The notes beneath the pieces were generated by a model that was not told the DNA's origin, ran no database searches, and saw nothing but the letters and a program-made list of their open reading frames with translations. The position numbers and the translations under genes are program-made. A stretch of 63,836 nucleotides of DNA, counting the filler, from Acidimicrobiia bacterium (GTDB lineage: Bacteria > Actinomycetota > Acidimicrobiia > Spongiisociales > JAHEDJ01): the NCBI GenBank assembly GCA_029210695.1. It is 3 parts of 3 records of this genome, joined end to end, with 100 filler letters (N's around TTAATTAATTAA, not from the genome) between each part and the next. Parts side by side here need not be neighbours in the genome. Positions count along the whole stretch, not along the records: positions 1 to 22,723 come from JARGFH010000056.1; 2 more parts are not named here. The stretch is one strand, 5' to 3'. Below, in pieces: positions 2,178 through 45,077 of this stretch. The stretch's first letter is position 1. Each line of letters opens with the position of its first letter.

Positions 2178-2984
2178 ATGATCCATCCGCCCCTCCCCGA
2201 CTCCGTTACCGTGTTGGCGGGAACCGACGTCGAGGGCGAGTGGGAACGCTTTGCTCCATTTGAGGCGATGCACCACCTCCACGAGATCTGCAACCCGATG
2301 GACGCCACTTCCCTCGAGGAGATCCTCGACCGCCTGTCCCCTACCGGCGGCGAGCGCATGATCGACGTGGCCTGCGGCCACGGCGCCTTGCTCCTCAGGG
2401 CGGCCGAACGATCGGCGATCGAGGGAGTCGGACTGGACCTCTCACCGTGGGTTCTGACCCGGGCTTCCGCGCGAGCCCACGACCGCCCGCTGCAAGGAAC
2501 GGTCGAGTGGTGGCTTGGTGACGGCACCGCTCTCGCCCGAGACCAACAGTGGGACGTCGCCACCTGTCTCGGGGCCTCGTGGATCTGGCACGGGTTTACG
2601 GGGACGCTGCGGGCGCTGGCCGCCCGCACCCACCCGGGTGGACGGATCGCCATCGGCGACCTCCGCACAAAGACCGGCCTGGCGGCAGAGGCCGTCGAAG
2701 CCGTCATCGGGACCGACACGAAGATGACCACCGAAGCCGACCAGATCGACGCCATTCAGAAAGCCGGCCTCGAGCCGATCCACTGCTACATCAGTCCCGA
2801 AGAGGCCTGGGCCGGCTACCACCGCCTGGTCATCGAGTCCGCCGACACCTACCAGGGGCCGGACCCGGCCGTCAACGCCAGGGCGATGGCCCGTGCCTGG
2901 CAGGAGGAGTTCGAGCGCGACCGGCGGATACTCGAATGGACGGTATGGATCGCAAAGAAGCCGGGCCACCCGGCGTCACCATGA
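2178..2984 (+). CDS. Class I SAM-dependent methyltransferase (YjhP-like)
   Basis: HEICNPM, DVACGHG SAM-binding motif, CLGASWI; start placed at ATG 2178 behind TAGCCT. Confidence 0.85.
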   Translation: MIHPPLPDSVTVLAGTDVEGEWERFAPFEAMHHLHEICNPMDATSLEEILDRLSPTGGERMIDVACGHGALLLRAAERSAIEGVGLDLSPWVLTRASARAHDRPLQGTVEWWLGDGTALARDQQWDVATCLGASWIWHGFTGTLRALAARTHPGGRIAIGDLRTKTGLAAEAVEAVIGTDTKMTTEADQIDAIQKAGLEPIHCYISPEEAWAGYHRLVIESADTYQGPDPAVNARAMARAWQEEFERDRRILEWTVWIAKKPGHPASP

Positions 2985-3029: not shown

Positions 3030-4427
3030 TCATCCACCCCCTGGAATCTCAGTGACGATCACGCTCCGATTGGCGTCGAGTTCGACCGGATCGACCTTGT
3101 CTTCAGTCAGGAAGATCGAAGCGTTTCCGTGGCAGGCATCGCACGAGGCGTTCTGCGGCGTCGAGCGCTGGATGTTGTGTGGAGTCGCGTACAGCCAGGT
3201 CGGCCGGGCATCGAACTCGGGCAACAGATCATCGCCGTAGTAGGAGAAGCTGTCCTGGTCGACCGGGACATGGCGGACCGTCACCCACGACCATGGGCGG
3301 TCGTCGGTCGGAGTCGGGTTCTTCCCGATGTAGAACAACATCTGCGACTCGTCCGTCTCGAAGTACGGCACGCCTTCCTCGGATTTCTGAACGTGACAGC
3401 TGTAACAGTTCTTGTATGCCACCGAATGGCAGACCTGACAGGAAAGGGCATCCAGATGCCATGCCGTGTGCTGGGCGTTGGCGCCTTCGAGGTCCGGGTG
3501 ACAATCGGTGCAGGCCGGATCTTGCGCTCCGTCGTATCGGAGCTCCTGCTCGGGGCCGACCCCGTGCATGTCATCGCCGGTGTGGCAGGTGAAGCACGCC
3601 ATGCCGCCCGGGTTGTAGTGGACGTCTGCCGGATACATCCCGCCGTCGTCCGTTTCGTTCTTGCCTTTGTACTCGTTCTCGATCCGGCTGCCGTGACAGC
3701 CCGTGCAGGTCAAGTTCATCGGCGGCGTCTCTTTGAACGAGTGACCGGCGAGCAGTCCACCTCCGGCACTGGTCGGCCGGCTCACATGGCATTGCCCGCA
3801 CGAGGCGTGACAGGATGCGCAGTGATTGGTGAAGGCCTCTTCCAGCCCGGGCGAGAGCTCGTCGCCGCCGCTGCGGGCCAGCAGCACGGTGTCGTAGCCG
3901 CCGAGCGTCGCATGCAGGCTGCCGACGTGATCGTCGGTGGTGTCTTCGTGGCAGGTGCCGCAGGTGGTGATCGGGTCGGGATCGACCGTTATTCCGGTGT
4001 GGGCCTCTTCCATGTCGGTTGCGCCCGGCACCCCGCCGTGACAGGTGGTGCACCCGACCTGCCCGTGCGTACTGGCCGGGAATTCCTCATCGCTTACGAA
4101 TACTTGCTCCCATGCCTCCAACTGAGGCACCGAGCCGCCTCAGCCCTCACCCGAGCTGAGCGATTCCGCGTCCACCGGTTCAACGGCGAGCGCCATCAAG
4201 GTTTCCTGGTTGGTGTGGCAATCGAGGCAGGCGGCGTCCGGGTCCATCGCTTCGGTGGTGGTCGGAACGACGGCCTGTGTCGTAGTGGTTGCTACCGAAT
4301 TCGGCGTTGTGTCGAGAGCCGCCACAGTGGTGTCTGGAGCTTCCGCCTCGTCACTGCTGCAACCGGCGAATACTCCTCCGGCCACGATCATCGCCCCGGC
4401 GGCCACCACCAGAGTCCAACGTTTCAT
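3030..4427 (-). CDS. Predicted selenocysteine-containing 11-heme cytochrome c lipoprotein (UGA readthrough at 4140-4142, residue 96)
   Basis: ORF 4140-4427 (AGGAG SD, lipobox FAGC, CLDCH) and ORF 3030-4130 (10 CxxCH, no signal peptide) are in frame across one TGA that is followed by a SECIS-like hairpin. The multiheme call is firm; Sec is inferred. Confidence 0.8.
4106..4139 (-). promoter_or_regulatory. Putative bacterial SECIS element
   Basis: UGA-GGCG-GCUC-GG-UGCCUC-AGUUG-GAGGCA-UGG-GAGC: 6-bp upper stem from +11, loop at +17 with G second, 4-bp lower stem. Confidence 0.7.
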
Positions 4428-4482
4428 ATCAACTCCTGGTGGGAGGCGCCGGGATCTCACCGACGCCTCCCGCTGGTCCGGT

Positions 4483-5589
4483 CTAGGGCAGTTCGTTGAT
4501 CACGGTTTCGGTCGGGTATCCCGGCGCACCCGTGTAGCGGCCGGTGGCGAGGACCGCATCGTCGTCGGTCCAGTCCATCATCCCGAACTTCATGTTGACG
4601 GAGTCGTAGCCGAGCAGCTTGAGGGCGGTTGCCGCCACCTGACCGGTGTGACCGGTGTAGCAGTAGACGATGATCTGCTCATCGGATGGGAGCATGGCCA
4701 GGCTGGCCGGATCGGCGATGGCTTTCCAACCGATGTTGTAGGCACCTTCCACATGACCGAGCGCATAGGCATCCGGCGCCCGGACGCTCAACACGAACGG
4801 ATTGTTCGCATCATCACCGTCTGAGAGGTTCTCAAACAAGGCTTCGGCGGAGGTCGTCGGACCCCAGTCGGCCAGGAAACTCTGGGCCGACGCAATCGCG
4901 ATATCAACCGCGGCCGTCTCGCCGGTGGTCAGCGTCGGCGGTTCATATTCAACCGTCAGTTCGTTGGCTTCAGTCTCGGTCGGGTATCCCGGCGCACCCG
5001 TGTAACGGGCGGTAGCCAGGATCGTGTCGTCATCGGTCCAGCCCATCATCCCGAACTTCAGGTTGGTGGCGTCGTACCCGAAGATCCGCAGCAGGGTCGC
5101 TGCCACCTGGCCGGTATGGCCGGTGTAGCAGTACACGACGATCGGCTGATCGGTCGGCAACTTGGCCAGGTTCGCCGGGTCGGCGATTTCTTTCCAGGGG
5201 ATGTTGTATGCGCCCTCGATGTGACCGAGCGCATAAGCATCCGGCGCCCGGACGCTCAGAATGAACGGGTCGTTCGATTCGTCGCCGTCCGAGAGGTTCT
5301 CGAACAGGGCTTCGGCCGAAATCGTCGGCGACCAGTCGGCAAGTGCGGCGGTGATGTGGGCGGCAAGAACCGCACTCTCATCGATCGCTTCCGTGGTCGT
5401 GGTGGTCGGGGCCACTGTGGTCGTGGTCATCTCGACCATGGTCGTGGCGACCATTGGAATGGTTGTTTCGGCGGCCGCGGCCGCGGTGGTTTCAGTGGTC
5501 TCCGTGGTGTCGTCCGACCCGCAGGCCGAGACAAAGAGACCCATCACGATGAACAAGATCAGCAAGTTCATTCTCTTGCTGGGTGACAT
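4483..5589 (-). CDS. Tandem rhodanese (sulfurtransferase) lipoprotein
   Basis: Lipobox VSAC, Thr-rich linker, two near-identical domains with GH(I/V)EGAYNI and CYTGHTG active-site loops. Confidence 0.9.
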   Translation of the reverse strand: MSPSKRMNLLILFIVMGLFVSACGSDDTTETTETTAAAAAETTIPMVATTMVEMTTTTVAPTTTTTEAIDESAVLAAHITAALADWSPTISAEALFENLSDGDESNDPFILSVRAPDAYALGHIEGAYNIPWKEIADPANLAKLPTDQPIVVYCYTGHTGQVAATLLRIFGYDATNLKFGMMGWTDDDTILATARYTGAPGYPTETEANELTVEYEPPTLTTGETAAVDIAIASAQSFLADWGPTTSAEALFENLSDGDDANNPFVLSVRAPDAYALGHVEGAYNIGWKAIADPASLAMLPSDEQIIVYCYTGHTGQVAATALKLLGYDSVNMKFGMMDWTDDDAVLATGRYTGAPGYPTETVINELP

Positions 5590-5815
5590 GGCACTCCTTT
5601 CAGAGTGATGTCAAGGTTCCTACCCCTTGCTGGCAATGTATCGCGTTCTGTCGCTTCTTGGACACGCCGTTGGCCCCATTCAAAAGTGCCGGCGGACCCG
5701 CCCAAGCGAAGGAAATACGTCGGTATAACACCTGCTTATGTAGGGTTTCTGACCGGTTGGGAAGAGATCGCCGGCCGGAATGGTTGCGCAGAACAGAAAA
5801 TGTGAAGGAGCAGCG

Positions 5816-6322
5816 ATGGATGCACAAAACCTCGGCTTGCTGATCTTGCGGGTGGCCGCCGGCGCGGTGATGATCGCCCACGGCCTCAACCACGGACGCA
5901 AGCTCGACAGCACCGCCGCCTGGTTCGAGTCCATAGGCTTCAGCCGCGCCAGGATGCAGGCGTTCCTCTCGGCGGCCGGCGAACTCGCCATCGGCGCCGG
6001 CCTCATAACAGGGGCTCTCACCACCTTCGCTGCCGCCGGTCTCGTCGCCACCATGGTGGTGGCGGGCGTTTCGAATCACCGCAAGGCGGGGTTCTTCGCC
6101 TTCAACCGTCCGATCGAGGGTTGGGAGTATGTGATGATGCTGGGCGTGGTCGGCTTGTCGCTCGCCACGATGGGGGGAGGCGAATGGTCGATCGACGGTG
6201 CAATCGGCCTCGACGTGTCCGGATGGCCCGGATTCATCATCGGTTTGGCCGGGGTCGGAGCAGGCATCACCCAGCTCGCCCTGTTCTGGAGTGCGCCTGC
6301 GGAAACCGAGATCGACGAATAG
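5816..6322 (+). CDS. DoxX family membrane protein
   Basis: LILRVAAGAVMIAHG, GWEY and GGGEWSIDG motifs; AAGGAG SD before ATG 5816. Confidence 0.88.
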   Translation: MDAQNLGLLILRVAAGAVMIAHGLNHGRKLDSTAAWFESIGFSRARMQAFLSAAGELAIGAGLITGALTTFAAAGLVATMVVAGVSNHRKAGFFAFNRPIEGWEYVMMLGVVGLSLATMGGGEWSIDGAIGLDVSGWPGFIIGLAGVGAGITQLALFWSAPAETEIDE

Positions 6323-6374
6323 CGGTTGGTTCCGCCGCGACCTGTCCCCTCCGAGTCCCGGCTCCGGCGGTGAG

Positions 6375-7232
6375 TCAGTCGTTCAGACGTTCCGCCGCAG
6401 GATGGTCCTCCGTGACGCCGGCCGACTTGGGCGCCGCCGACGTCATCTGGGCAAAGGCAGCCCCGATCGGCAGCAGGTAGGCCCAGTAGGAGATGACCAT
6501 CAGCAGCGACGGACCCGGCGACCATCCGAACATGGTCTTTGCGAACCGGGCGACAGTGCTGACGTCGGGATCGCCGAACGGCACCTGATAGAGAGGTTCG
6601 ATCAGGATCGGCAGCACGGCCGCCTCCTGGAACTCGTGAACGCCCTTCGATACGAGGCCGGCCGCGAAGAGAATGATCAGGAACCCGGTCACCCGGAAAA
6701 AGATCCGGAGGTTGATGCGGCTGCCACCCCGGTACATGAGGTAGCCGATGCCGATGGCGGTAAGCAGGCCGAGCAGGCCACCGACCAGCTGGCTGCCGCT
6801 GGCGGACTCCCCCACTGTCGTTGAGATCAGGAAGAGGGCTGATTCGAGGCCTTCTCTCAGGACCGCGACGAACGCCACCGCCGCCAATGTGGCGACACCG
6901 CCGAGCGCCACCGCCGAAGCAGCTTCCGACTCCAGCTTTCCGCGCAGCTGACGGGCGTTCTTTCCCATCCAGAAGATCATCCAGGTGAGGAGCCCGCCGG
7001 CCGCGAACGCTACGACTCCTTCGGTGAGTTGCTCGGCACGGCCTTCGAGGGAACCTACGGTGTTGTAGATCACGATCCCGATGAGGAGAGAGAGGAAGGC
7101 CGCCGAAATGGTCCCGACCCATACCCACCGGATGTGGCTGCGCGAACCAAGCCGGTTGAGGTAGGCCAGCAGGATGGCGACGACGAGCGCCGCTTCGACA
7201 CCTTCACGCAACATCACCAGGAACGCAGCCAT
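6375..7232 (-). CDS. FTR1/EfeU family iron permease
   Basis: Two RExxE motifs (LREGVEA, LREGLES) and about 7 TM helices. Confidence 0.9.
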   Translation of the reverse strand: MAAFLVMLREGVEAALVVAILLAYLNRLGSRSHIRWVWVGTISAAFLSLLIGIVIYNTVGSLEGRAEQLTEGVVAFAAGGLLTWMIFWMGKNARQLRGKLESEAASAVALGGVATLAAVAFVAVLREGLESALFLISTTVGESASGSQLVGGLLGLLTAIGIGYLMYRGGSRINLRIFFRVTGFLIILFAAGLVSKGVHEFQEAAVLPILIEPLYQVPFGDPDVSTVARFAKTMFGWSPGPSLLMVISYWAYLLPIGAAFAQMTSAAPKSAGVTEDHPAAERLND

Positions 7233-9910: not shown

Positions 9911-10405
9911 CTATCCGCGGTCTTCGACGGTCCAGAGGAGCCATCTGGTGCCCCCCTCGATGAGGTGGAGGTCCCAGACGACCTCGTCGACGGTCTCTCC
10001 GTCACGGGCGATGATCACCGTGCCCGATACCACCGGGAACCCATCCCGCATGGCCGCGGTTGGCTCGACGAGTGTGAAGGAGTAAGTCGCCTCGTCCGAA
10101 CCGATCGTCGACGCTTCTCCAAATAGTTGAGCGTATTGCGGACCGGCGGGGTCGAGGAACCCATCCAGCACTGCCAGGTCACCCGTCGATGCAAACCGCG
10201 CCCATGCGTCCAGGGCGTCCTGGGCGGCGGCGATCCACACCTCCTCGTCGAAGACAAGAACCGGAACAGGAGTGCCAATCGTCACCGCGTCGGAGCCGGC
10301 GGGTTCCTCCGACGACCAGTCGAAGACCTGCCAGACCAACACCGCGGCCAGCACCACGATCAGGCCAATGGCCGCCGCCAGGCGCCCGGGGCTGTTCCCA
10401 CCCAT
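9911..10405 (-). CDS. Hypothetical membrane-anchored protein at the end of the tad cluster
   Basis: N-terminal TM helix; follows the TadG-like gene. Confidence 0.6.
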   Translation of the reverse strand: MGGNSPGRLAAAIGLIVVLAAVLVWQVFDWSSEEPAGSDAVTIGTPVPVLVFDEEVWIAAAQDALDAWARFASTGDLAVLDGFLDPAGPQYAQLFGEASTIGSDEATYSFTLVEPTAAMRDGFPVVSGTVIIARDGETVDEVVWDLHLIEGGTRWLLWTVEDRG

Positions 10406-10412
10406 TACGACC

Positions 10413-10829
10413 TCACGGTGACGGCGCCGCCCGCGCCACAGAGACAACTCGTACCAACAACGGATCTTCGCCGACCGTCAACAGACGTAGGAGCGTGAGT
10501 TCGACTTCCCGAGTCAATACGACCTGCACGGAATCGCCGGCGACCGCCACGTCGAGCGGGGCCGACAGCTCTCCGGCCACACCATGCTGAGCGACGACAC
10601 GCTCCGCCAGCGCGACAGCCTCATCATTCAAGAGACGTATCTCCCCGACCTGGCGCCATTGGTCCACATCCACGGCCGAAGCCGCCGCAGCCGCCGCAGA
10701 ATCGGCCACTGCAGCCAGCTCGCGCCGGTCCGACATGACCCTCCACAGATCAACGCTCAGTCCCCCAAGGAACAACACGGCGATTGACAGACCGAGAACC
10801 CAGAACGTGATAGACCCGCGCTCTTTCAC
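10413..10829 (-). CDS. TadG-like minor pilin
   Basis: ERGS prepilin motif, TM helix, VD..R....RRELAAVADSAAAAAAS. Confidence 0.8.
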   Translation of the reverse strand: MKERGSITFWVLGLSIAVLFLGGLSVDLWRVMSDRRELAAVADSAAAAAASAVDVDQWRQVGEIRLLNDEAVALAERVVAQHGVAGELSAPLDVAVAGDSVQVVLTREVELTLLRLLTVGEDPLLVRVVSVARAAPSP

Positions 10830-11290
10830 GGTGCAAAGCTTCTGTAGAGCTCGACCTGCTCCGTCACGCGGGACGATACGGTTCCCTCTCCGAACGTCCC
10901 TATGCCGAGGATGGTCGCCGCCGGCACTCTCACCCGAACCTCGACCGCCATCATCGCTCCACGGGACAGTGGCGGACAGTGCGCCTCGGCTTTCATTTCA
11001 TCGGGAGCCTCTTCATGTGCGCAGAAGAAGACGGAAACGTCCTCGGCATCGATTCCATGATTCGAAGCGACGCGCAAAGCAAGGGCAGCCGCGGCGGTCT
11101 CATCCGGCGAAGTACCCGGTGACAAAACGAGAACGCGAGCCGCTTCTCCCGCCGCCACACGCGCCATCGACTGTCGCTCTACCCACGGGGCGACCGACAT
11201 GACCAGGACCGCCATCGGGATGAGCAGGAAGCCGACGGCGAGCGCAAACTCGATCGGAGCTGCACCGCGATCGTCGCATCGTTCGCTCAC
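10826..11290 (-). CDS. TadE-like pseudopilin
   Basis: DRG/AAPIEFAL cleavage motif and AAGEAAR; GTGA overlap with the upstream gene. Confidence 0.8.
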   Translation of the reverse strand: MSERCDDRGAAPIEFALAVGFLLIPMAVLVMSVAPWVERQSMARVAAGEAARVLVLSPGTSPDETAAAALALRVASNHGIDAEDVSVFFCAHEEAPDEMKAEAHCPPLSRGAMMAVEVRVRVPAATILGIGTFGEGTVSSRVTEQVELYRSFAP

Positions 11291-11658
11291 GGCAGCGTTT
11301 CCTTCACTGCGGTAGCCGTGAGACTGAACTCCCAGTCGGGAACAACCCAACCTTCGAACTGGACCCGGGCATTCGCCACTACGAGGTTGCCATCCAGACC
11401 ACACCCGGTCTCGACTCCGCGACCCATTTCGCCTCCGAGCAGGTCACCCACGAACGAGTCAATGCGGTCCTGGCAGTCATCCGGCGAAGCGCCGAGCGGA
11501 GCTCCGGCGCGAACGCCCTCGTCGAGCGCCGCCCGTACAACGCCGCGGCCATATTGGAACACGATCAGATTGGCAAAAGTGACAAAAAGCAGCAGCGAAA
11601 GACCGGCCGCCAGCACGAATTGTGGCGTCGCCATCCCGCGCTCTGATGCGGCATCCAT
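11287..11658 (-). CDS. TadE-like pseudopilin
   Basis: ERG/MATPQF motif, TM helix, AALDEGVRAGA. Confidence 0.75.
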   Translation of the reverse strand: MDAASERGMATPQFVLAAGLSLLLFVTFANLIVFQYGRGVVRAALDEGVRAGAPLGASPDDCQDRIDSFVGDLLGGEMGRGVETGCGLDGNLVVANARVQFEGWVVPDWEFSLTATAVKETLP

Positions 11659-11667
11659 GCCGGAACC

Positions 11668-11910
11668 TCAGCCGTCGAGGATCTTGGTGCGGATCCAATC
11701 CACGACGTCGACCCCCAGCGCCTGTAGGAGGCCCCAGATCACGACCAGTGCGGCGATGGCCAGCGCGGCGTTTCCGAGCAGTTCAGCAGTGCTCAACCCT
11801 TCCTCACGGCGAAGTTCGCCTACACCGCGCGGCAGGCGCTGCAGCAGCGCAACCATAAATACACGGACCAACTCCCACTCCTTTCCCTTCCTGGAGATCA
11901 TATCCATCAC
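11668..11910 (-). CDS. Flp-like major pilin (start may be ATG 11856)
   Basis: REEG/LSTAE prepilin site followed by a hydrophobic helix; short protein. Confidence 0.7.
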   Translation of the reverse strand: MMDMISRKGKEWELVRVFMVALLQRLPRGVGELRREEGLSTAELLGNAALAIAALVVIWGLLQALGVDVVDWIRTKILDG

Positions 11911-12869
11911 AGATTCCCGAAGACGATGGAAGGCAGAGGTGCGGCGACAAACAACAGCATCACCGGCGCCAGAATTGCGATCGTCGGGATCAACATCGCC
12001 GCACGTCTCTTCGTAGCCTGCCTCCGCATCGCTTCACGCCGACCCTCCCTGACATCTTCACTCAGGGCGAGAAGCGCCTCGCCGAGATCTGCGCCGCGCT
12101 CGTCGGCCGCAGCCAGAAGTGCGTATGTTCTGGCCGCATTGGGCTCGGGCGTCGTCGAAGCCACCCGACTGAACGCGTCTGAGGCGGACATCCCGCTCCG
12201 ATGGAGCCGCAACGCCTCCTCTAATTCCTCGACGACGGCCCCGGAGCCGCGTTGAGAGAGTTGCTGCACCGCCTGGATCACTCCTCCCCCGACCCGGACC
12301 CGCATCGCCAACAACTGATTGATCGTATATATCTCGATCCTCATCCGATCACGCCGTTCCTCGATTGCCCTGTCGACTGCCGCCCGCGACCGGGTGGCAC
12401 CCACGACGAATCCCAGAACGCCGAGAAGGAGTGCAAGTGACGCCCCATCCCCAACGAGCGCGCCCGCGACAACCCCAGCAACCGAAGCGGCAACGGTGGT
12501 CCCGAGCTGACGAACCCGATACTCCTGAAGGCGGTCATCCTCAGGCAGGGACAAGTACAACCCGGCCTGGCGGAGTTTCAGCGCCATCCCCTCATCACCT
12601 GTGGCTTCCACCAGCCTGCCGAACCGTACGGCAAGGGCCTCGACCATCGGGCCGAAGAGTCGGGCTACGACTCCCGCCCCACTGACAGGTCCCGGATCGG
12701 ACACACTGAGCACATCCGGACTCATTCCGAGGCTCGTCCGGCTGATCACGGTGTATGGGCGTACTCGCGGCGCCAGGCGACGGGTCGGCCGGACGAGGAG
12801 GGACGCGAACGCAGCCACCGCGATTCCCGACAGAACGGAGACCAGGAGGTCAACACCGCCCGAACTCAA
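11907..12869 (-). CDS. tadC: TadC-like pilus assembly platform protein (T2SSF domain)
   Basis: ERGADLGEALLALSEDVR motif, C-terminal TM helix, position in the cluster. Confidence 0.8.
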   Translation of the reverse strand: MSSGGVDLLVSVLSGIAVAAFASLLVRPTRRLAPRVRPYTVISRTSLGMSPDVLSVSDPGPVSGAGVVARLFGPMVEALAVRFGRLVEATGDEGMALKLRQAGLYLSLPEDDRLQEYRVRQLGTTVAASVAGVVAGALVGDGASLALLLGVLGFVVGATRSRAAVDRAIEERRDRMRIEIYTINQLLAMRVRVGGGVIQAVQQLSQRGSGAVVEELEEALRLHRSGMSASDAFSRVASTTPEPNAARTYALLAAADERGADLGEALLALSEDVREGRREAMRRQATKRRAAMLIPTIAILAPVMLLFVAAPLPSIVFGNL

Positions 12870-13765
12870 CGCGCACCCCCCTGTTCGACCAGCAACGCTG
12901 CCCCTCCCATGACTCTCGGCTCATCTGGATCCCGGCTCAGACGCCTGACGACTGCAATCCCGAGCAGACTCATGGCAGCTCCGATCACAATGACGACTGC
13001 TCCCCCGGGAGACCTATAGAACTCGCGGAACAGCCCGGCCCGGGCCGTCAGTGCCACGAGCACAAACCAGGGCAAGGCAAAGACAACCCTTGCATTTATC
13101 TTCTGCTCGAGCGCTTCCGTTCTGATCTCTTCGATAGCCCACAAGTCACGCGTCGTAGCCTCGCCTAGATCATGGAGAATGCGCGGCACGAGCGCACCTC
13201 CACGTTCATAAGCGAGGATCAACACCTCGATGACGCGATCTGACGTCGGATCCGCCAGCTCTTCCTTGATCACTTCGAGTGCCGGCACAACCCCCAGCGT
13301 CCGGGTCAGGAGTGGATATGCGGCAAAGGCCTGCCGGAGAGGGATCGGTCCGCTGCGCGCCAGAGCTTCAACTGCCTTCGGAAGTGACATCCCGGAGGAA
13401 ATCGATGCGACGAGATCGCGAATCCCGTCGGGCCAAGCCTGCTGAACCTCCGAGAGTCGTTGGATTCTCCGTCGCGAGAAGTAGGCGCGAGGCAGCAATG
13501 CCACCACGATGGCCGGCATCAATGCGACGAGTGGGACGCCTGAAACGAGGAGAAACACGGCGAACGCGAGGGCGCCGGCGCCAATCGAAGTCATCCAGAA
13601 CTGACGGGGCGTTAGCTGTACCCCCGCCTGAATCAGCCAGGTCTGCTGCTCCGAAACCGTCGGTCGCATTGCCTTCCGCATTTCGAACCGGGGACCATGG
13701 CCCGTCATGAAGCCGACGAGCAAGTACATGAACAAACCGGACAGAAGCGACGCCACCAGGGTCAT
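12866..13765 (-). CDS. tadB: TadB-like pilus assembly platform protein (T2SSF domain)
   Basis: WPDGIRDLVASISSGMSL motif; ATGA overlap with tadA. Confidence 0.82.
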   Translation of the reverse strand: MTLVASLLSGLFMYLLVGFMTGHGPRFEMRKAMRPTVSEQQTWLIQAGVQLTPRQFWMTSIGAGALAFAVFLLVSGVPLVALMPAIVVALLPRAYFSRRRIQRLSEVQQAWPDGIRDLVASISSGMSLPKAVEALARSGPIPLRQAFAAYPLLTRTLGVVPALEVIKEELADPTSDRVIEVLILAYERGGALVPRILHDLGEATTRDLWAIEEIRTEALEQKINARVVFALPWFVLVALTARAGLFREFYRSPGGAVVIVIGAAMSLLGIAVVRRLSRDPDEPRVMGGAALLVEQGGAR

Positions 13766-15042
13766 AGAGGGCTCACTCTGCCCTCGAGAATCGACTTGAG
13801 ATCCAGACCATGAGGAAGTGCACGATCGATGATGGCCGTCGATTGCTCGGGAGGGAACGAACCCGTCCAATCGAGTGGGCGCCCGATGGCCTCTCGAGCG
13901 AAGATGGGATCGGTTGAGAAGTCCTCCCGCATCGCCGGAACGACGGCAATGATCTCCATGATCTGCCGCCGGAGTCTTTCGTTGCCCGGTTCGGGCAACG
14001 AATCCCGATCGAGATGGACGACGAAGTCGATCGATGAAGCAAATACCTTGCGAACGATCGGCTCGCTGACGTTCTCGCCTGCCATCAAGGCGGCATTGAC
14101 GATCGCGTGCAGAGCCTCGCGGGCCGAGTTGGCATGGACGGTGCAGGCGAATCCGCATCCGGCGTTAACCGCCCTCGTCAATTCGAAGGCTTCCGCCCCT
14201 CGAACTTCGCCCACAACGATACGGTCTGGCCGCATCGCCAGCACGACCTTCACCAGCCCTCGAAGGGAGATCTCGCCCTCCCCGTCGAGTGATGGAGGTC
14301 GCGCCTCGTAATAGGAACCATGCACGATGGGAACGTGTAGCTCACGCACCTCCTCGCAACATCGAAGGCAATGTGTCGGAGGTGCAGCCGAAATCATCGC
14401 GCTCAGTAGTGATGTCTTCCCTGCTCCGGGAGGTCCGGAGATCAGAACGGAGAGATTCGTCTGCATGATCGCCCAGAGGAACCCGGCCGCGACCGGCGTC
14501 ATTGCGCCAAGTTCCACGAGAGAGGGAAGCGTCTCTTTGCGAAGCGCATAGCGACGAATCGTGGCCGACAGTCCATCCGAGATCGGTGGGATCACGGCAG
14601 TCATCCGCGCCGAGTCCGACAGGACCCGCGCTTGCACGATCGGACTGGCCGTGTCTAGATGACGATCAGTATCCGCGAGAAGCCGATTCACGACCTGACG
14701 GTTCTCGGCTTCGGTTGTCGGTGCCGCGATCGCTCTCAGATGTCCTGAGCCGTCGATGTAGGTCACCCGGGGCCCCTCGATGAAGATCTCCTCCACATCA
14801 GGGCGGGTGAGGATGTCGGTCAAAGGTCCGTGCGCGGCAATCGACCGGATGACCCGTCCGATCATCTCACCCGGATCGTGCAACGCCCGTTCTTCCCCCA
14901 GGTGCGCTCTCCGCTGGTAGTCGTCAACCACGCCGGCCACGGCCGCCTCAACTGCCGTACGATCGAGTTGCGGGTCCAGTTTCCGACTCTCGATGAGGTC
15001 GACTGCAGTCCTACGGATCGTGTCGTACGCGTTTGCCGTCAT
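13762..15042 (-). CDS. tadA: TadA/CpaF pilus assembly ATPase
   Basis: GPPGAGKTS, MRPDRIVVGEVRGAEA and TVHANS motifs. Confidence 0.92.
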   Translation of the reverse strand: MTANAYDTIRRTAVDLIESRKLDPQLDRTAVEAAVAGVVDDYQRRAHLGEERALHDPGEMIGRVIRSIAAHGPLTDILTRPDVEEIFIEGPRVTYIDGSGHLRAIAAPTTEAENRQVVNRLLADTDRHLDTASPIVQARVLSDSARMTAVIPPISDGLSATIRRYALRKETLPSLVELGAMTPVAAGFLWAIMQTNLSVLISGPPGAGKTSLLSAMISAAPPTHCLRCCEEVRELHVPIVHGSYYEARPPSLDGEGEISLRGLVKVVLAMRPDRIVVGEVRGAEAFELTRAVNAGCGFACTVHANSAREALHAIVNAALMAGENVSEPIVRKVFASSIDFVVHLDRDSLPEPGNERLRRQIMEIIAVVPAMREDFSTDPIFAREAIGRPLDWTGSFPPEQSTAIIDRALPHGLDLKSILEGRVSPL

Positions 15043-16238
15043 ACGTTGACGCTTTCCGCTGCCTGCATCTCGTCGAGTCGTCGCGTGAGTGCCATCACCG
15101 CCTTCGAGTAGGGGCCGATCGGTACTGCTTCCCCCGCCCACCCCGCATCGGACACCCGCCGGTCCTCAGGGACGAACGACAGCGTGGCTGGTTGATAGCT
15201 CCTGGTGAACTCAATAGCGACTTCTCGCTGCTGGAAGCTCGATCTCCCGATGCGGTTGAAGACGCAGTGGACCGTCGCTTGTTCCACCAGCGAAGCAGCA
15301 TCGGCCAGCCACTCGATCAAGCGCGCCACCCCGACTGGCGTTGGCTGCCCGACCACCACCACCTGATCGGCGGCAGAGACAAGAGCACGGGCAAGTCCGT
15401 TTCGATCGGGTCCCCCGTGATACGACAGGTCTTCGATGCGAGCACCAATGTCGACGACTACCCGGTCGCGACCATGTGCCAACTCCCTTACGACCTCGAC
15501 AACGTCACTCGAGCGAAGTTCGATCCAATCCCGAGGGTTGGGAAGCCCGATGAGCACCTCTACCCCGACGTGACGGGGAAAGGCGAGCGATGCATGAAGG
15601 CCGTCTGAGCGATGATTGAGGGCATCGACTGCCGACCTCAGATTCGGATGGAGCGCAATACCCAGCCGCTGGGCAATCGAAGGTGCCAGGTCATCACAGT
15701 CGACCAGAGCAACTGAACCACCCCGGTATCGCCACCCGGCGGCCAAGGCAATGGCAATCTCGGTGCGGCCGACACCTCCCGATGGGCCGCCCACAACAGT
15801 TACTTTCCCGCCCTCCGCTCCGAGATCCGATGGCCCGATCGATCCGGAGATCGGCTCATCCGACCCTGCAACACTCAGACGTTCAGGACCGACGAAGATT
15901 CGACCGACTGCCTTCAGGAACTCTTCGGGCGGGGCTTGAGCTTCGACCACCGCATCGACGCCGAGCGACCGGAGTCGCTCCTCACCCTCACGAAACTCGA
16001 CCCGATCGAAGACGCCCAGCACCAGCTTGCCGTTGGCCTGCGCCTGCTGCACCAACCGGCGAGATAGGTACGACGTGAGGTCGTCGATGACCAACACGTC
16101 AAACTGCTCGGACAGGACGTCCTCCGGCCGCATAACCCGTGTGCGGACGCGGGCGCCGCCGTGGTCGGCAACGAACCTGTGGAGTCGCTCACCCCACTCG
16201 CGAGGTGACACCGCAATACCGAGCTCAGCTTCCCGCAT
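15039..16238 (-). CDS. CpaE/TadZ-like MinD-type protein with a receiver-like N-terminus
   Basis: Deviant Walker A GPSGGVGRT, VALVDCD, VVVDIG; lies between cpaB and tadA. Confidence 0.78.
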   Translation of the reverse strand: MREAELGIAVSPREWGERLHRFVADHGGARVRTRVMRPEDVLSEQFDVLVIDDLTSYLSRRLVQQAQANGKLVLGVFDRVEFREGEERLRSLGVDAVVEAQAPPEEFLKAVGRIFVGPERLSVAGSDEPISGSIGPSDLGAEGGKVTVVGGPSGGVGRTEIAIALAAGWRYRGGSVALVDCDDLAPSIAQRLGIALHPNLRSAVDALNHRSDGLHASLAFPRHVGVEVLIGLPNPRDWIELRSSDVVEVVRELAHGRDRVVVDIGARIEDLSYHGGPDRNGLARALVSAADQVVVVGQPTPVGVARLIEWLADAASLVEQATVHCVFNRIGRSSFQQREVAIEFTRSYQPATLSFVPEDRRVSDAGWAGEAVPIGPYSKAVMALTRRLDEMQAAESVNV

Positions 16239-16941
16239 CGGGTTCTCCAGAAGATACTGACTCGGGTGCAGCCGGTTGCGGGAACACCAACTGCGTTGGC
16301 TCGCTCGCACCGGTCGACCGGATGATCTCAATCGATCCTCCATCGAGCGCGCTGGCGATCCGCAGAGCCGTGAGCGAGTCGACGGCAATAGTGACGTAGA
16401 ACTGGCCGCTCGATCCAAGTCCGGCGCCGGATGACGGAGCAACATCAAGGACGGGTGCGGCCAGGACGATGTATTCAGCCAGGCCGTCGGCAACGCCGAT
16501 AACGTCGACAACGTCGTTTTCGTTGATCATTCCACCGGTGGCATGAACCCGGTCCACCGGGATACTCATAGCCCTTTGTTCGGACGGCGCAGCAGCCTCC
16601 ACGAAATCGGAGACGGAGACGAGTTCTCCCTGCGCGACGGCACGGGCAACAATCCGGTCCTCCAGGTCGAGCAGGTACTCCGCCGGGACGAGGGTGGATA
16701 GGACATTCGGATCCACCTGGACTTCGACCATCCGAAATGCGTCGGCGCTGACCTTCGTGCCGCGCACGAGGTCCGCAACTGCCACCGCGACAAGGGAGGT
16801 CTCATCCCTCGCCCGCAACAGGGCGAAGTTGACGAGCACGGCCAGCAGGCCGGCGGTGACCATGATGAGATGCCCCATCGACAGTCGACCGGTCAACGAC
16901 GGGCGGGTCCGGTGGGCTGGTTTCGACTGCTCAACCGTCAT
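16225..16941 (-). CDS. CpaB/RcpC-like SAF-domain protein
   Basis: TM helix, VAVAVADLVRGT SAF motif, RAMSIPV..GG.I...D.VDVI. Confidence 0.82.
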   Translation of the reverse strand: MTVEQSKPAHRTRPSLTGRLSMGHLIMVTAGLLAVLVNFALLRARDETSLVAVAVADLVRGTKVSADAFRMVEVQVDPNVLSTLVPAEYLLDLEDRIVARAVAQGELVSVSDFVEAAAPSEQRAMSIPVDRVHATGGMINENDVVDVIGVADGLAEYIVLAAPVLDVAPSSGAGLGSSGQFYVTIAVDSLTALRIASALDGGSIEIIRSTGASEPTQLVFPQPAAPESVSSGEPDAGS

Positions 16942-22723: not shown

Positions 22724-22823
22724 NNNNNNNNNNNNNNNNNNNNNNNNNNNNNNNNNNNNNNNNNNNNTTAATTAATTAANNNNNNNNNNNNNNNNNNNNN
22801 NNNNNNNNNNNNNNNNNNNNNNN
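22724..22823. other. Artificial contig spacer
   Basis: N44-TTAATTAATTAA-N44 six-frame stop linker. Confidence 0.97.
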
Positions 22824-33707: not shown

Positions 33708-34158
33708 CGGTCCCCCCGGAGGGGAGAAGGTCCCTGCGCCGGAGCGCAGCGAAGGCGTAGGTAGGGGGGCTCTCGGTCCCCCCTTTGGGGGGAAAGTACC
33801 GCTCGCCGACAGGCGAGGGGTAGGGGGCTCCACCTCGAGTCGAGGGTCGCGGGTTGGTCCCCTGCAGGGGGGAAGGTCCCTGCGCCGGAGCGTAGCGGAG
33901 GTGGAGGTAGGGGGGCTCTCGGTCCCCCCTTTGGGGGGAAAGTACCGCTCGCCGACAGGCGAGGGGTAGGGGGCTCCACCTCGNNNNNNNNNNNNNNNNN
34001 NNNNNNNNNNNNNNNNNNNNNNNNNNNNNNNNNNNNNNNNNNNNNNNNNNNNNNNNNNNNNNNNNNNNNNNNNNNNNNNNAGTCGAGGGTCGCGGGTTGG
34101 TCCCCTGCAGGGGGGAAGGTCCCTGCGCCGGAGCGTAGCGGAGGTGGAGGTAGGGGGG
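33708..34158 (+). repeat. REP/BIME-like array of alternating ~60-bp hairpin units (146-bp period), broken by a scaffold gap
   Basis: Units GGTCCCC-loop-GGGGG-AA(G/A)GT...hairpin...GGTAGGGGG; the sequence after the gap resumes in repeat register. Confidence 0.88.
33984..34080. other. Scaffold gap inside the tandem repeat
   Basis: Run of 97 N. Confidence 0.95.
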
Positions 34159-44977: not shown

Positions 44978-45077
44978 NNNNNNNNNNNNNNNNNNNNNNN
45001 NNNNNNNNNNNNNNNNNNNNNTTAATTAATTAANNNNNNNNNNNNNNNNNNNNNNNNNNNNNNNNNNNNNNNNNNNN
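44978..45077. other. Artificial contig spacer
   Basis: N44-TTAATTAATTAA-N44. Confidence 0.97.

Follow-up and report, generated by a model that had tools for sequence, protein, structure and literature searches.

Gene layout at the locus

The window, meaning the whole stretch of DNA analysed here, is 63,836 nt long and comes from Acidimicrobiia bacterium (GenBank assembly GCA_029210695.1). At 3030–4427 on its minus strand lies a gene for a multiheme c-type cytochrome lipoprotein whose frame is interrupted once by a TGA that is almost certainly decoded as selenocysteine (Sec). The window consists of three contigs (C133, C134 and C140) joined by runs of N (22724–22823, 33984–34080 and 44978–45077), and the neighbourhood past 22723 is therefore not contiguous with the cytochrome gene.

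Translation of 3030–4427 (minus strand) gives 95 residues, a TGA, 369 residues and a terminal TGA, and between ATG 4427 and TGA 3030 the in-frame TGA at 4142–4140 is the sole interruption. This bears out a preliminary description of the locus, in which an open reading frame (ORF) from ATG 4427 with a Shine-Dalgarno sequence, a lipobox and one CxxCH heme motif ran into a TGA and continued in frame. Relatives were collected by scanning GTDB genomes with query peptides, and the best 80 of 143 related stretches were kept. Two of these 80 loci end before the TGA site and 78 cover it, which together with the window gives an alignment of 79 rows. The features bearing on decoding are listed below.

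3030..4427, minus strand: multiheme c-type cytochrome lipoprotein gene, 465 amino acids with predicted Sec at residue 96 (U96); from translation, single copy in the genome
4433..4437, minus strand: Shine-Dalgarno-like AGGAG, 5 nt upstream of ATG 4427; seen in the sequence
4359..4427, minus strand: predicted signal peptide ending in a lipobox-like FAG-C23; from translation
4215..4229, minus strand: CxxCH motif 1 (C67–H71), the sole motif ahead of the TGA; in 78/79 rows, the remaining row ending with its contig
4140..4142, minus strand: in-frame TGA, codon 96, putative Sec, in G93-E-G-U-G-G98; TGA in 77/78 relatives, Cys in 15/44 unbroken homologues
4112..4130, minus strand: apical stem-loop of a predicted selenocysteine insertion sequence (SECIS); from covariation and RNAalifold, and containing GTG 4130, used as a start by gene callers

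A Thr/Ala/Pro-rich tether follows C23 and extends to about residue 60. Neither Lys nor Arg occurs between residues 3 and 185, and trypsin would therefore not yield the junction peptide. Ahead of heme motif 1, a hydrophobic segment is present in 76 of 78 rows and a lipobox-like pattern in 58 of 78. Ten CxxCH motifs lie after the TGA, at residues 126, 156, 203, 210, 241, 278, 306, 330, 341 and 429. This ten-motif part had been described as lacking an export signal, and indeed neither a hydrophobic N-terminus nor a twin-Arg motif was found there in any row (0/79). Attachment of c-type hemes takes place after export, and a downstream protein made on its own would thus carry none.

Conservation of the in-frame TGA

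The TGA is retained in 77 of the 78 relatives covering the site, within the motif G-x-G-*-[GA]; five rows misaligned by tblastn were re-placed on this motif. The other relative, L040, has TGG. These relatives belong to the Actinomycetota, Chloroflexota, Desulfobacterota/Deltaproteobacteria, Spirochaetota and Planctomycetota, with the closest homologues in Actinomycetes or Acidimicrobiia. Both parts of the gene are in frame in all 78, and none has TAA or TAG at the site. For comparison, the codons that end these 79 frames vary (TAG in 31, TGA in 23, TAA in 23, with two running off). The preliminary description had raised the prospect that relatives might have the two parts out of frame or separated by TAA or TAG, of which no case appears among the 78, and that the TGA might be an assembly error, which has to contend with the same TGA in 77 independent assemblies. 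Chance or assembly error can be ruled out because of this retention, which includes locus L001, where the protein is 94% identical and the TGA is kept.

The family is patchy. Two of the 201 class genomes have it, as do five of 31 near relatives, always with the internal TGA. One relative, L025, has its frame broken 118 codons past the TGA (6097–6460), and its genome gave no selA match. In a tree of 70 rows built by a quick method, the Actinomycetota rows nest within Anaerolineae-type rows (Shimodaira-Hasegawa-like approximate likelihood ratio support 97–99), a hint from sequence that the gene may have been transferred from Anaerolineae. Several members (L012, P0037, P0045, P0050, P0083 and P0100) carry a C-terminal extension with 6–8 extra CxxCH motifs and a membrane anchor, giving 16–18 motifs after the TGA. 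Among the public sequencing runs listed as matching the locus there was no RNA run, and the best DNA runs share 0.12 of words. Contigs from four runs that align to the locus belong to relatives, and some of them span the TGA codon.

A conserved hairpin downstream of the TGA

At 13 nt downstream of the UGA, the window folds into a 7-pair stem with a 5-nt loop (4130–4112), placing a loop G at +18 (position 4122). A loop G at +18 is present in 79/79 rows, two of which were counted at +21 on account of a one-codon insertion. Six named stem pairs are 95.4% paired across the 79 aligned rows, with 65 double changes; none of 500 shuffles equalled this and slid controls gave 37–62%, with the caveat that the shuffle ignores kinship and 0/500 is not a probability. 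RNAalifold, unprompted, recovered five of the six pairs with compensatory changes in each. Codon usage within the stem departs from that elsewhere in these genes: Pro at U+5 is CCT in 57/58 (14% elsewhere), Pro at U+6 is CCG in 56/56 (41%), Leu at U+7 is TTR in 65/66 (19%) and Glu at U+8 is GAG in 62/62 (59%). Synonymous codon choice is locked within the predicted stem. Hairpin spacing, geometry and loop are the same in another gene of the genome, which encodes a thioredoxin-like UxxC protein. We regard the comparative case for a SECIS element, drawn from aligned sequences, as strong.

Selenium machinery and other likely selenoproteins

The preliminary description had pointed to selA, selB, selC and selD as genes to look for, and all are present in the 97.85% complete host genome: selA, selB and selD score above cut-offs, with selD itself containing an internal TGA, and ARAGORN identified one tRNA-Sec and no other tRNA with a UCA anticodon. 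The genome also encodes cytochrome c assembly proteins. Of the 50 carrier genomes tested (78 loci were intended), 48 have selA.

Other likely selenoprotein TGAs in the host genome (G000) are at C101:5424(+), C30:1102(+), C30:408(-), C103:35098(+), C144:9781(+) and C151:14955(-), and in selD on C94. These sites fall in thioredoxin- or peroxiredoxin-like UxxC proteins, a formate dehydrogenase alpha subunit (UHAP) and SelD. Hairpins with the same geometry as that of the cytochrome gene follow C101:5424(+), C30:1102(+) and C30:408(-).

The tRNA content bears on the reading of the TGA as a sequencing error, a pseudogene lesion or a Trp codon. Trp does occur at this position in L040, in P0137 and in a few further homologues, and these cases lie one base from TGA and are scattered in the tree. 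Against such a reading stand the 77 independent assemblies, the use of TGA as a stop throughout the genome and the identity of the only UCA-anticodon tRNA as tRNA-Sec. On these grounds assembly error, pseudogene and a TGA=Trp code were rejected, and we give this reading next to no credence.

Unbroken homologues

None of the 120 database homologues listed extends over more than 79% of the read-through protein or contains the GEG-U-GG motif; as had been anticipated of gene callers, all 120 are annotated as split. From 150 listed representatives at 50% identity, 50 aligned across column 96. Seven of these were dropped as off-register or starting past the site, and the remaining 43 with L040 make up 44 unbroken homologues, of which 15 have Cys at column 96. 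A metagenome scan with a Cys-type query returned four loci, one of which (L110) covers the site and has Cys. Natural Cys forms at the position of a candidate Sec are the usual selenoprotein test, and the aligned homologues include such forms. The non-Cys homologues are scattered in the quick tree, often on long branches.

Decoding of the TGA

We conclude that, with very little room for doubt on comparative grounds, the two ORFs are one gene and UGA 96 is decoded as Sec. The preliminary description had proposed this reading and a 465-residue protein with U96; TGA conservation, the SECIS hairpin, the machinery and the Cys homologues now support both.

Several observations weigh against this conclusion. 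L040, a close relative, has TGG at the site (L040:6097) with the hairpin intact; its TGG appears to be recent or erroneous, because its very close sister in the quick tree, L038, has TGA and the hairpin is kept. Since peptides of the query drove the scan, the sample of relatives is weighted towards close kin. Co-occurrence with selA discriminates little, since selA is common in the class (138/201 genomes, a tally that includes one unpublished genome, G237). The hairpin taken alone is modest (z -2.64 on 48 nt and -1.19 on 66 nt), and a SECIS pattern too loose for counting selenoproteins matches 698 of 14,998 TGA sites in the genome. Finally, 29 of the 44 unbroken homologues have Trp, His, Met, Tyr, other residues or no loop in place of Cys. 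The earlier expectation of TGA or Cys in this column thus holds for 77/78 relatives and 15/44 unbroken homologues and fails for these 29; the residue is therefore not universal, and the scaffold can exist without Sec or Cys at position 96.

If the TGA were instead a true stop, the locus would encode a short lipoprotein with one heme and, from its own start at GTG 4130 with the GAGG of TGA-GG as Shine-Dalgarno sequence, a decaheme protein; the hairpin would regulate re-initiation. An ATG, GTG or TTG does occur within 12 codons past the TGA in 78/79 rows, all 120 database homologues listed are annotated this way (at most 79% query coverage), and TGA is the commonest stop in the genome (638 of 1,042 long ORFs). 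A real stop would, however, drift to TAA or TAG as the terminal stops do, and the site never does. The downstream piece, having no export signal in 79/79 rows, would receive no c-type hemes; in 25/79 rows a non-start codon stands in place of the GTG at U+4; and the frame and G-G spacing are kept, with Cys at the same position in unbroken homologues. The earlier caveat of a weak Shine-Dalgarno sequence for GTG 4130 stands insofar as start codons lie near the TGA in nearly all rows, and is undercut by the missing export signal and the non-start codons at U+4. We consider a true stop very improbable, and some initiation downstream of the TGA may occur, to judge from the start codons there.

Fold, hemes and comparison with OTR

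An AlphaFold2 model of residues 61–465 (U modelled as C, 100 alignment rows) had a predicted local distance difference test score (pLDDT) of 94.3 and a predicted template-modelling score of 0.90, with loop residues 91–100 at pLDDT 89. In the model of a natural Cys homologue, P0153, the loop at the Sec site was placed with lower confidence (66–80). A VIA search with the cytochrome model ranked octaheme tetrathionate reductase (OTR) of Shewanella oneidensis (PDB 1sp3) first (Z 9.0, root-mean-square deviation 5.1, 281 residues aligned), and hhalign against a profile of six OTR loci gave 98.3% (E 1.2e-14, 290 columns). In the latter alignment the eight CxxCH motifs of OTR map to cytochrome motifs 3, 4, 5, 6, 7, 8, 9 and 11, and several distal His residues also match. 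These comparisons suggest that the body of the protein has an OTR-like fold and is a distant relative of OTR, extended by an N-terminal two-heme module that would carry the Sec loop. Telling against this, the structural similarity is modest (identity 18%, Z 9.0 being just above the tool's common best of 7–8, with a runner-up at Z 4.5), Foldseek of the model against the PDB gave no match at E<=0.001, and sequence searches of the PDB gave weak multiheme matches only. Residues considered in the comparison are as follows.

3873..3875, minus strand: R185, nearly invariant and aligned to the Lys of the OTR 'GK'; from profile alignment
3807..3821, minus strand: CxxCH motif 4 (C203–H207), counterpart of OTR heme II and putative catalytic heme; from profile alignment
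3393..3416, minus strand: Y338-K-N-C-Y-S-C-H345, containing CxxCH motif 10; modelled in a beta-strand

All eleven CxxCH motifs are conserved. Motif 10 (C341–H345) is a beta-strand in two independent AlphaFold2 apo models, including that of P0153, where the other motifs are helical, and it has no counterpart heme in OTR by profile alignment. The eleven hemes of the preliminary description are for these reasons a motif count: eleven motifs are there, and ten hemes are possible. Motif 10 may be a heme site misplaced by the apo models or may have another role, leaving 10 or 11 hemes. K339, Y342 and S343 are conserved in Sec-type members and mostly absent from other members (uncorrected for kinship). 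Sec-type members also have ten invariant non-motif His residues plus H202 (97%); only nine non-motif His are conserved family-wide.

The protein differs from OTR in several respects. Against the OTR model TIGR04315 it scores 20.8 bits (cut-off 375) and its downstream piece 23.9, and it has three CxxCH motifs more than the eight of OTR. Heme II is the catalytic heme of OTR. Its ligand there is Lys56 (PMC3769277, consulted in part), which the nearly invariant Arg185 replaces in the cytochrome. The NN[FY]C/U motif is absent from the cytochrome, whose Sec would lie instead in an N-terminal extension that OTR lacks, and the cytochrome further differs as a lipoprotein with a rhodanese partner. Membership in OTR proper was ruled out by the score, Arg185 and the missing NN[FY]C/U. 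Some OTRs also contain Sec (NNFU), as in the listed variant WP_331457571.1.

OTR genes with TGA in NNF-U were seen at L095, L096 and L099, in two carrier genomes, and are of the Sec-OTR type already listed. The host has a true OTR at G000:C66:17257-20193 (L094, L106), which scores above the TIGR04315 cut-off and is of the Cys type (NNYC). About 1.2 kb, containing a LysR regulator, separates its gene from the tRNA-Sec gene, and genes for pyridoxal phosphate enzymes of Cys/Met metabolism are close by.

Rhodanese partner and gene neighbourhood

Two further features flank the cytochrome gene.

4483..5589, minus strand: tandem-rhodanese lipoprotein gene, 368 amino acids with two CYTGHTG loops, upstream and co-directional; ends 55 nt before the cytochrome gene
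2960..2974, minus strand: hairpin resembling a terminator, with a T-rich tail, past the end of the cytochrome gene; identified by consensus only (6 such matches in the region, 1.8 expected)

A rhodanese match was found in 64 of 80 related loci, and in 41 of the 44 with enough flank, either upstream or downstream of the cytochrome. In L048, P0137 and P0181 the rhodanese is fused to it. Among 81 loci, a 4Fe-4S dicluster gene occurs in 26, cytochrome b in 9 and NrfD in 7, these being the usual quinol-linked parts.

An 8-bp GC-rich inverted repeat at 4471–4441 (minus strand) fills the gap between the rhodanese stop and the cytochrome Shine-Dalgarno sequence, and may act as a transcript stabiliser or attenuator. 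DoxX-family and FTR1 iron permease genes lie upstream of the rhodanese gene (window 5780–7232), and from our own reading of the translations we take 10400–16500 to be a Tad/Flp pilus cluster. Elsewhere in the genome are two clusters of multiheme ORFs with 5–11 CxxCH each (G000:C170:81252-96467 and C94:44027-60984), one with a NapC/NirT-like match and the other near cytochrome c assembly genes; both are candidate electron donors.

Proposed function

On balance, and by a small margin over doubt, we favour the protein as a membrane-anchored Sec/heme reductase of sulfane sulfur carried by the rhodanese. SelB would read the hairpin at 4130–4112 and deliver Sec-tRNA to UGA 4142, yielding the 465-residue lipoprotein. 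We infer that this would then be exported and tethered through C23, and that 10 or 11 c-type hemes would be attached to it there, outside the membrane. The rhodanese lipoprotein would take up sulfane sulfur, such as that of polysulfide, in the form of a Cys persulfide, and the U96 selenolate, on its Gly-rich loop, would attack the S-S bond. The Se-S adduct would then be reduced, with release of sulfide, by electrons that travel from the quinone pool through the chain of hemes as far as heme 4. The action would resemble, on a different scaffold, that of MccSep, which reduces polysulfide with Sec and heme (PMC13510729, consulted in part). Two negative results sit badly with this proposal: no 4Fe-4S/NrfD module lies beside the window copy, with NrfD not found in the host genome, and there is no conserved free Cys outside the CxxCH motifs comparable to C239 of MccSep.

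U96 could alternatively be a distal axial ligand of a heme iron, most likely that of heme 4, giving a His/Sec heme, with sulfur chemistry taking place on the ligand or with the ligand tuning a low-potential heme. Cys ligates heme in MccSep, TsdA and SoxA. The Lys ligand of OTR is replaced by Arg185 and the pocket Cys/Sec of OTR is absent, only nine non-motif His are conserved family-wide, and the model places the loop with confidence (pLDDT 89 over residues 91–100). The site is His in P0128, Met in P0131 and P0220, and Tyr in P0181 and P0184, all three residues being known heme ligands. The ten invariant non-motif His plus H202 nevertheless suffice for 10–11 hemes, for which reason the His count does not force a vacant heme site; many homologues have Trp, an aliphatic residue or no loop at the position, and confidence in the loop drops to 66–80 in the model of the Cys type. 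Ligation by U96 is in our judgement unlikely.

A different substrate, or an oxidative direction, is similarly a minority prospect: candidates include tetrathionate or thiosulfate, selenite or tellurite, nitrite or hydroxylamine, and the oxidation of sulfide or polysulfide. Rhodaneses serve both directions. OTR ancestry, as suggested by fold and profile alignment, leans this way, as does a weak full-length likeness to ExtN/ExtO of a selenite/tellurite operon (29.8 bits against a cut-off of 200). OTR and NrfA are promiscuous and MccSep also reduces selenite (PMC13510729, in the portion consulted), which likewise favours another substrate. The host has, on the other side, a separate true OTR, the Lys ligand of OTR is missing, and a near-constant rhodanese with Sec or Cys suits S-S or Se-S chemistry better than N-oxide chemistry.

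Comparison with known heme selenoproteins

Like the cytochrome, MccSep/ExtKL (GSU2937-2936 of Geobacter sulfurreducens; NF040886) is an exported multiheme c-type selenoprotein whose annotation is split at an in-frame UGA, and it too has a SECIS and homologues of the Cys type, while its operon family includes a rhodanese-like gene (ExtH). As described in the part of PMC13510729 consulted, MccSep has five hemes, U325 and a heme-ligating C239. Its Sec lies near the C-terminus in DG-U-P of an immunoglobulin-like domain, in contrast to the eleven motifs and predicted Sec in GEG-U-GG at residue 96 of the cytochrome, which has no conserved non-motif Cys other than column 96 to set against C239. NF040886 gave no match to the cytochrome at E<=0.01 (cut-off 250 bits), its best match in the genome being elsewhere at 21.2 bits. 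Membership in ExtKL/MccSep was ruled out by this score, the heme count, the Sec position and the lack of a free Cys.

ExtN/ExtO (NF040967, NF040968) match residues 105–447 weakly (E 2.6e-7), which may reflect heme motifs only; a search of 25 genomes for ExtN as a comparison gave no match, though no control matched either. The GSU2204 family (NF041027), a CXXCH-containing predicted selenoprotein of the outer-membrane beta-barrel type (PMC13188914, consulted in part), had no match to the cytochrome at E<=0.01. Neither the read-through protein nor either of its pieces, nor any of 10 natural homologues, reached the cut-off of an NCBIfam family. In the portion of that 2026 selenoprotein review consulted, the heme entries are ExtKL, GSU2204 and Sec-OTR, and the cytochrome family matches none of them by NCBIfam score. 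The preliminary description had known ExtKL as the only multiheme selenoprotein; the precedent is sound, and Sec-OTR (NNFU) was already listed beside it.

The strings GEGUGG, ATPHNIQ and YKNCYSCH are absent from the PMC12013277 (deep-Sep) supplements as far as these are stored, some long runs being cut there. Open-licence PMC and bioRxiv literature held no undecaheme selenocysteine protein, and the motif returned unrelated papers only. The family appears absent from the selenoprotein lists examined, which were open-licence sources consulted in part. We conclude that it is almost certainly a selenoprotein, judged from sequence, and a multiheme selenoprotein family distinct from ExtKL/MccSep, Sec-OTR and GSU2204, being a member of neither ExtKL nor OTR. 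With Sec apparently gained on an OTR-like scaffold in a separate event, the coupling of Sec to heme chains seems to have arisen more than once.

The boldest proposal, and one we hold with considerable reserve, is that this is a widespread, uncatalogued sulfur-respiration family in sediment Acidimicrobiia, Chloroflexota and others, fed by rhodanese and free of molybdenum, in which Sec would serve as a natural axial heme ligand on an OTR-like scaffold. To our knowledge, no natural Sec-ligated heme is known, and titles and abstract openings in the open-licence literature contained no Sec-ligated c-type heme protein.

Members of the family occur in mostly uncultured bacteria from at least five phyla. 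They are mis-annotated as signal-less decaheme 'hypothetical' proteins or under a neighbour's name, and surveys of sulfur respiration and of selenoproteomes therefore miss them. The natural Sec, Cys and residue-free versions allow a direct test of what selenium contributes. If the protein is a true sulfane-sulfur reductase, Acidimicrobiia and Anaerolineae would gain a route of sulfur respiration that does without the molybdenum polysulfide reductase.

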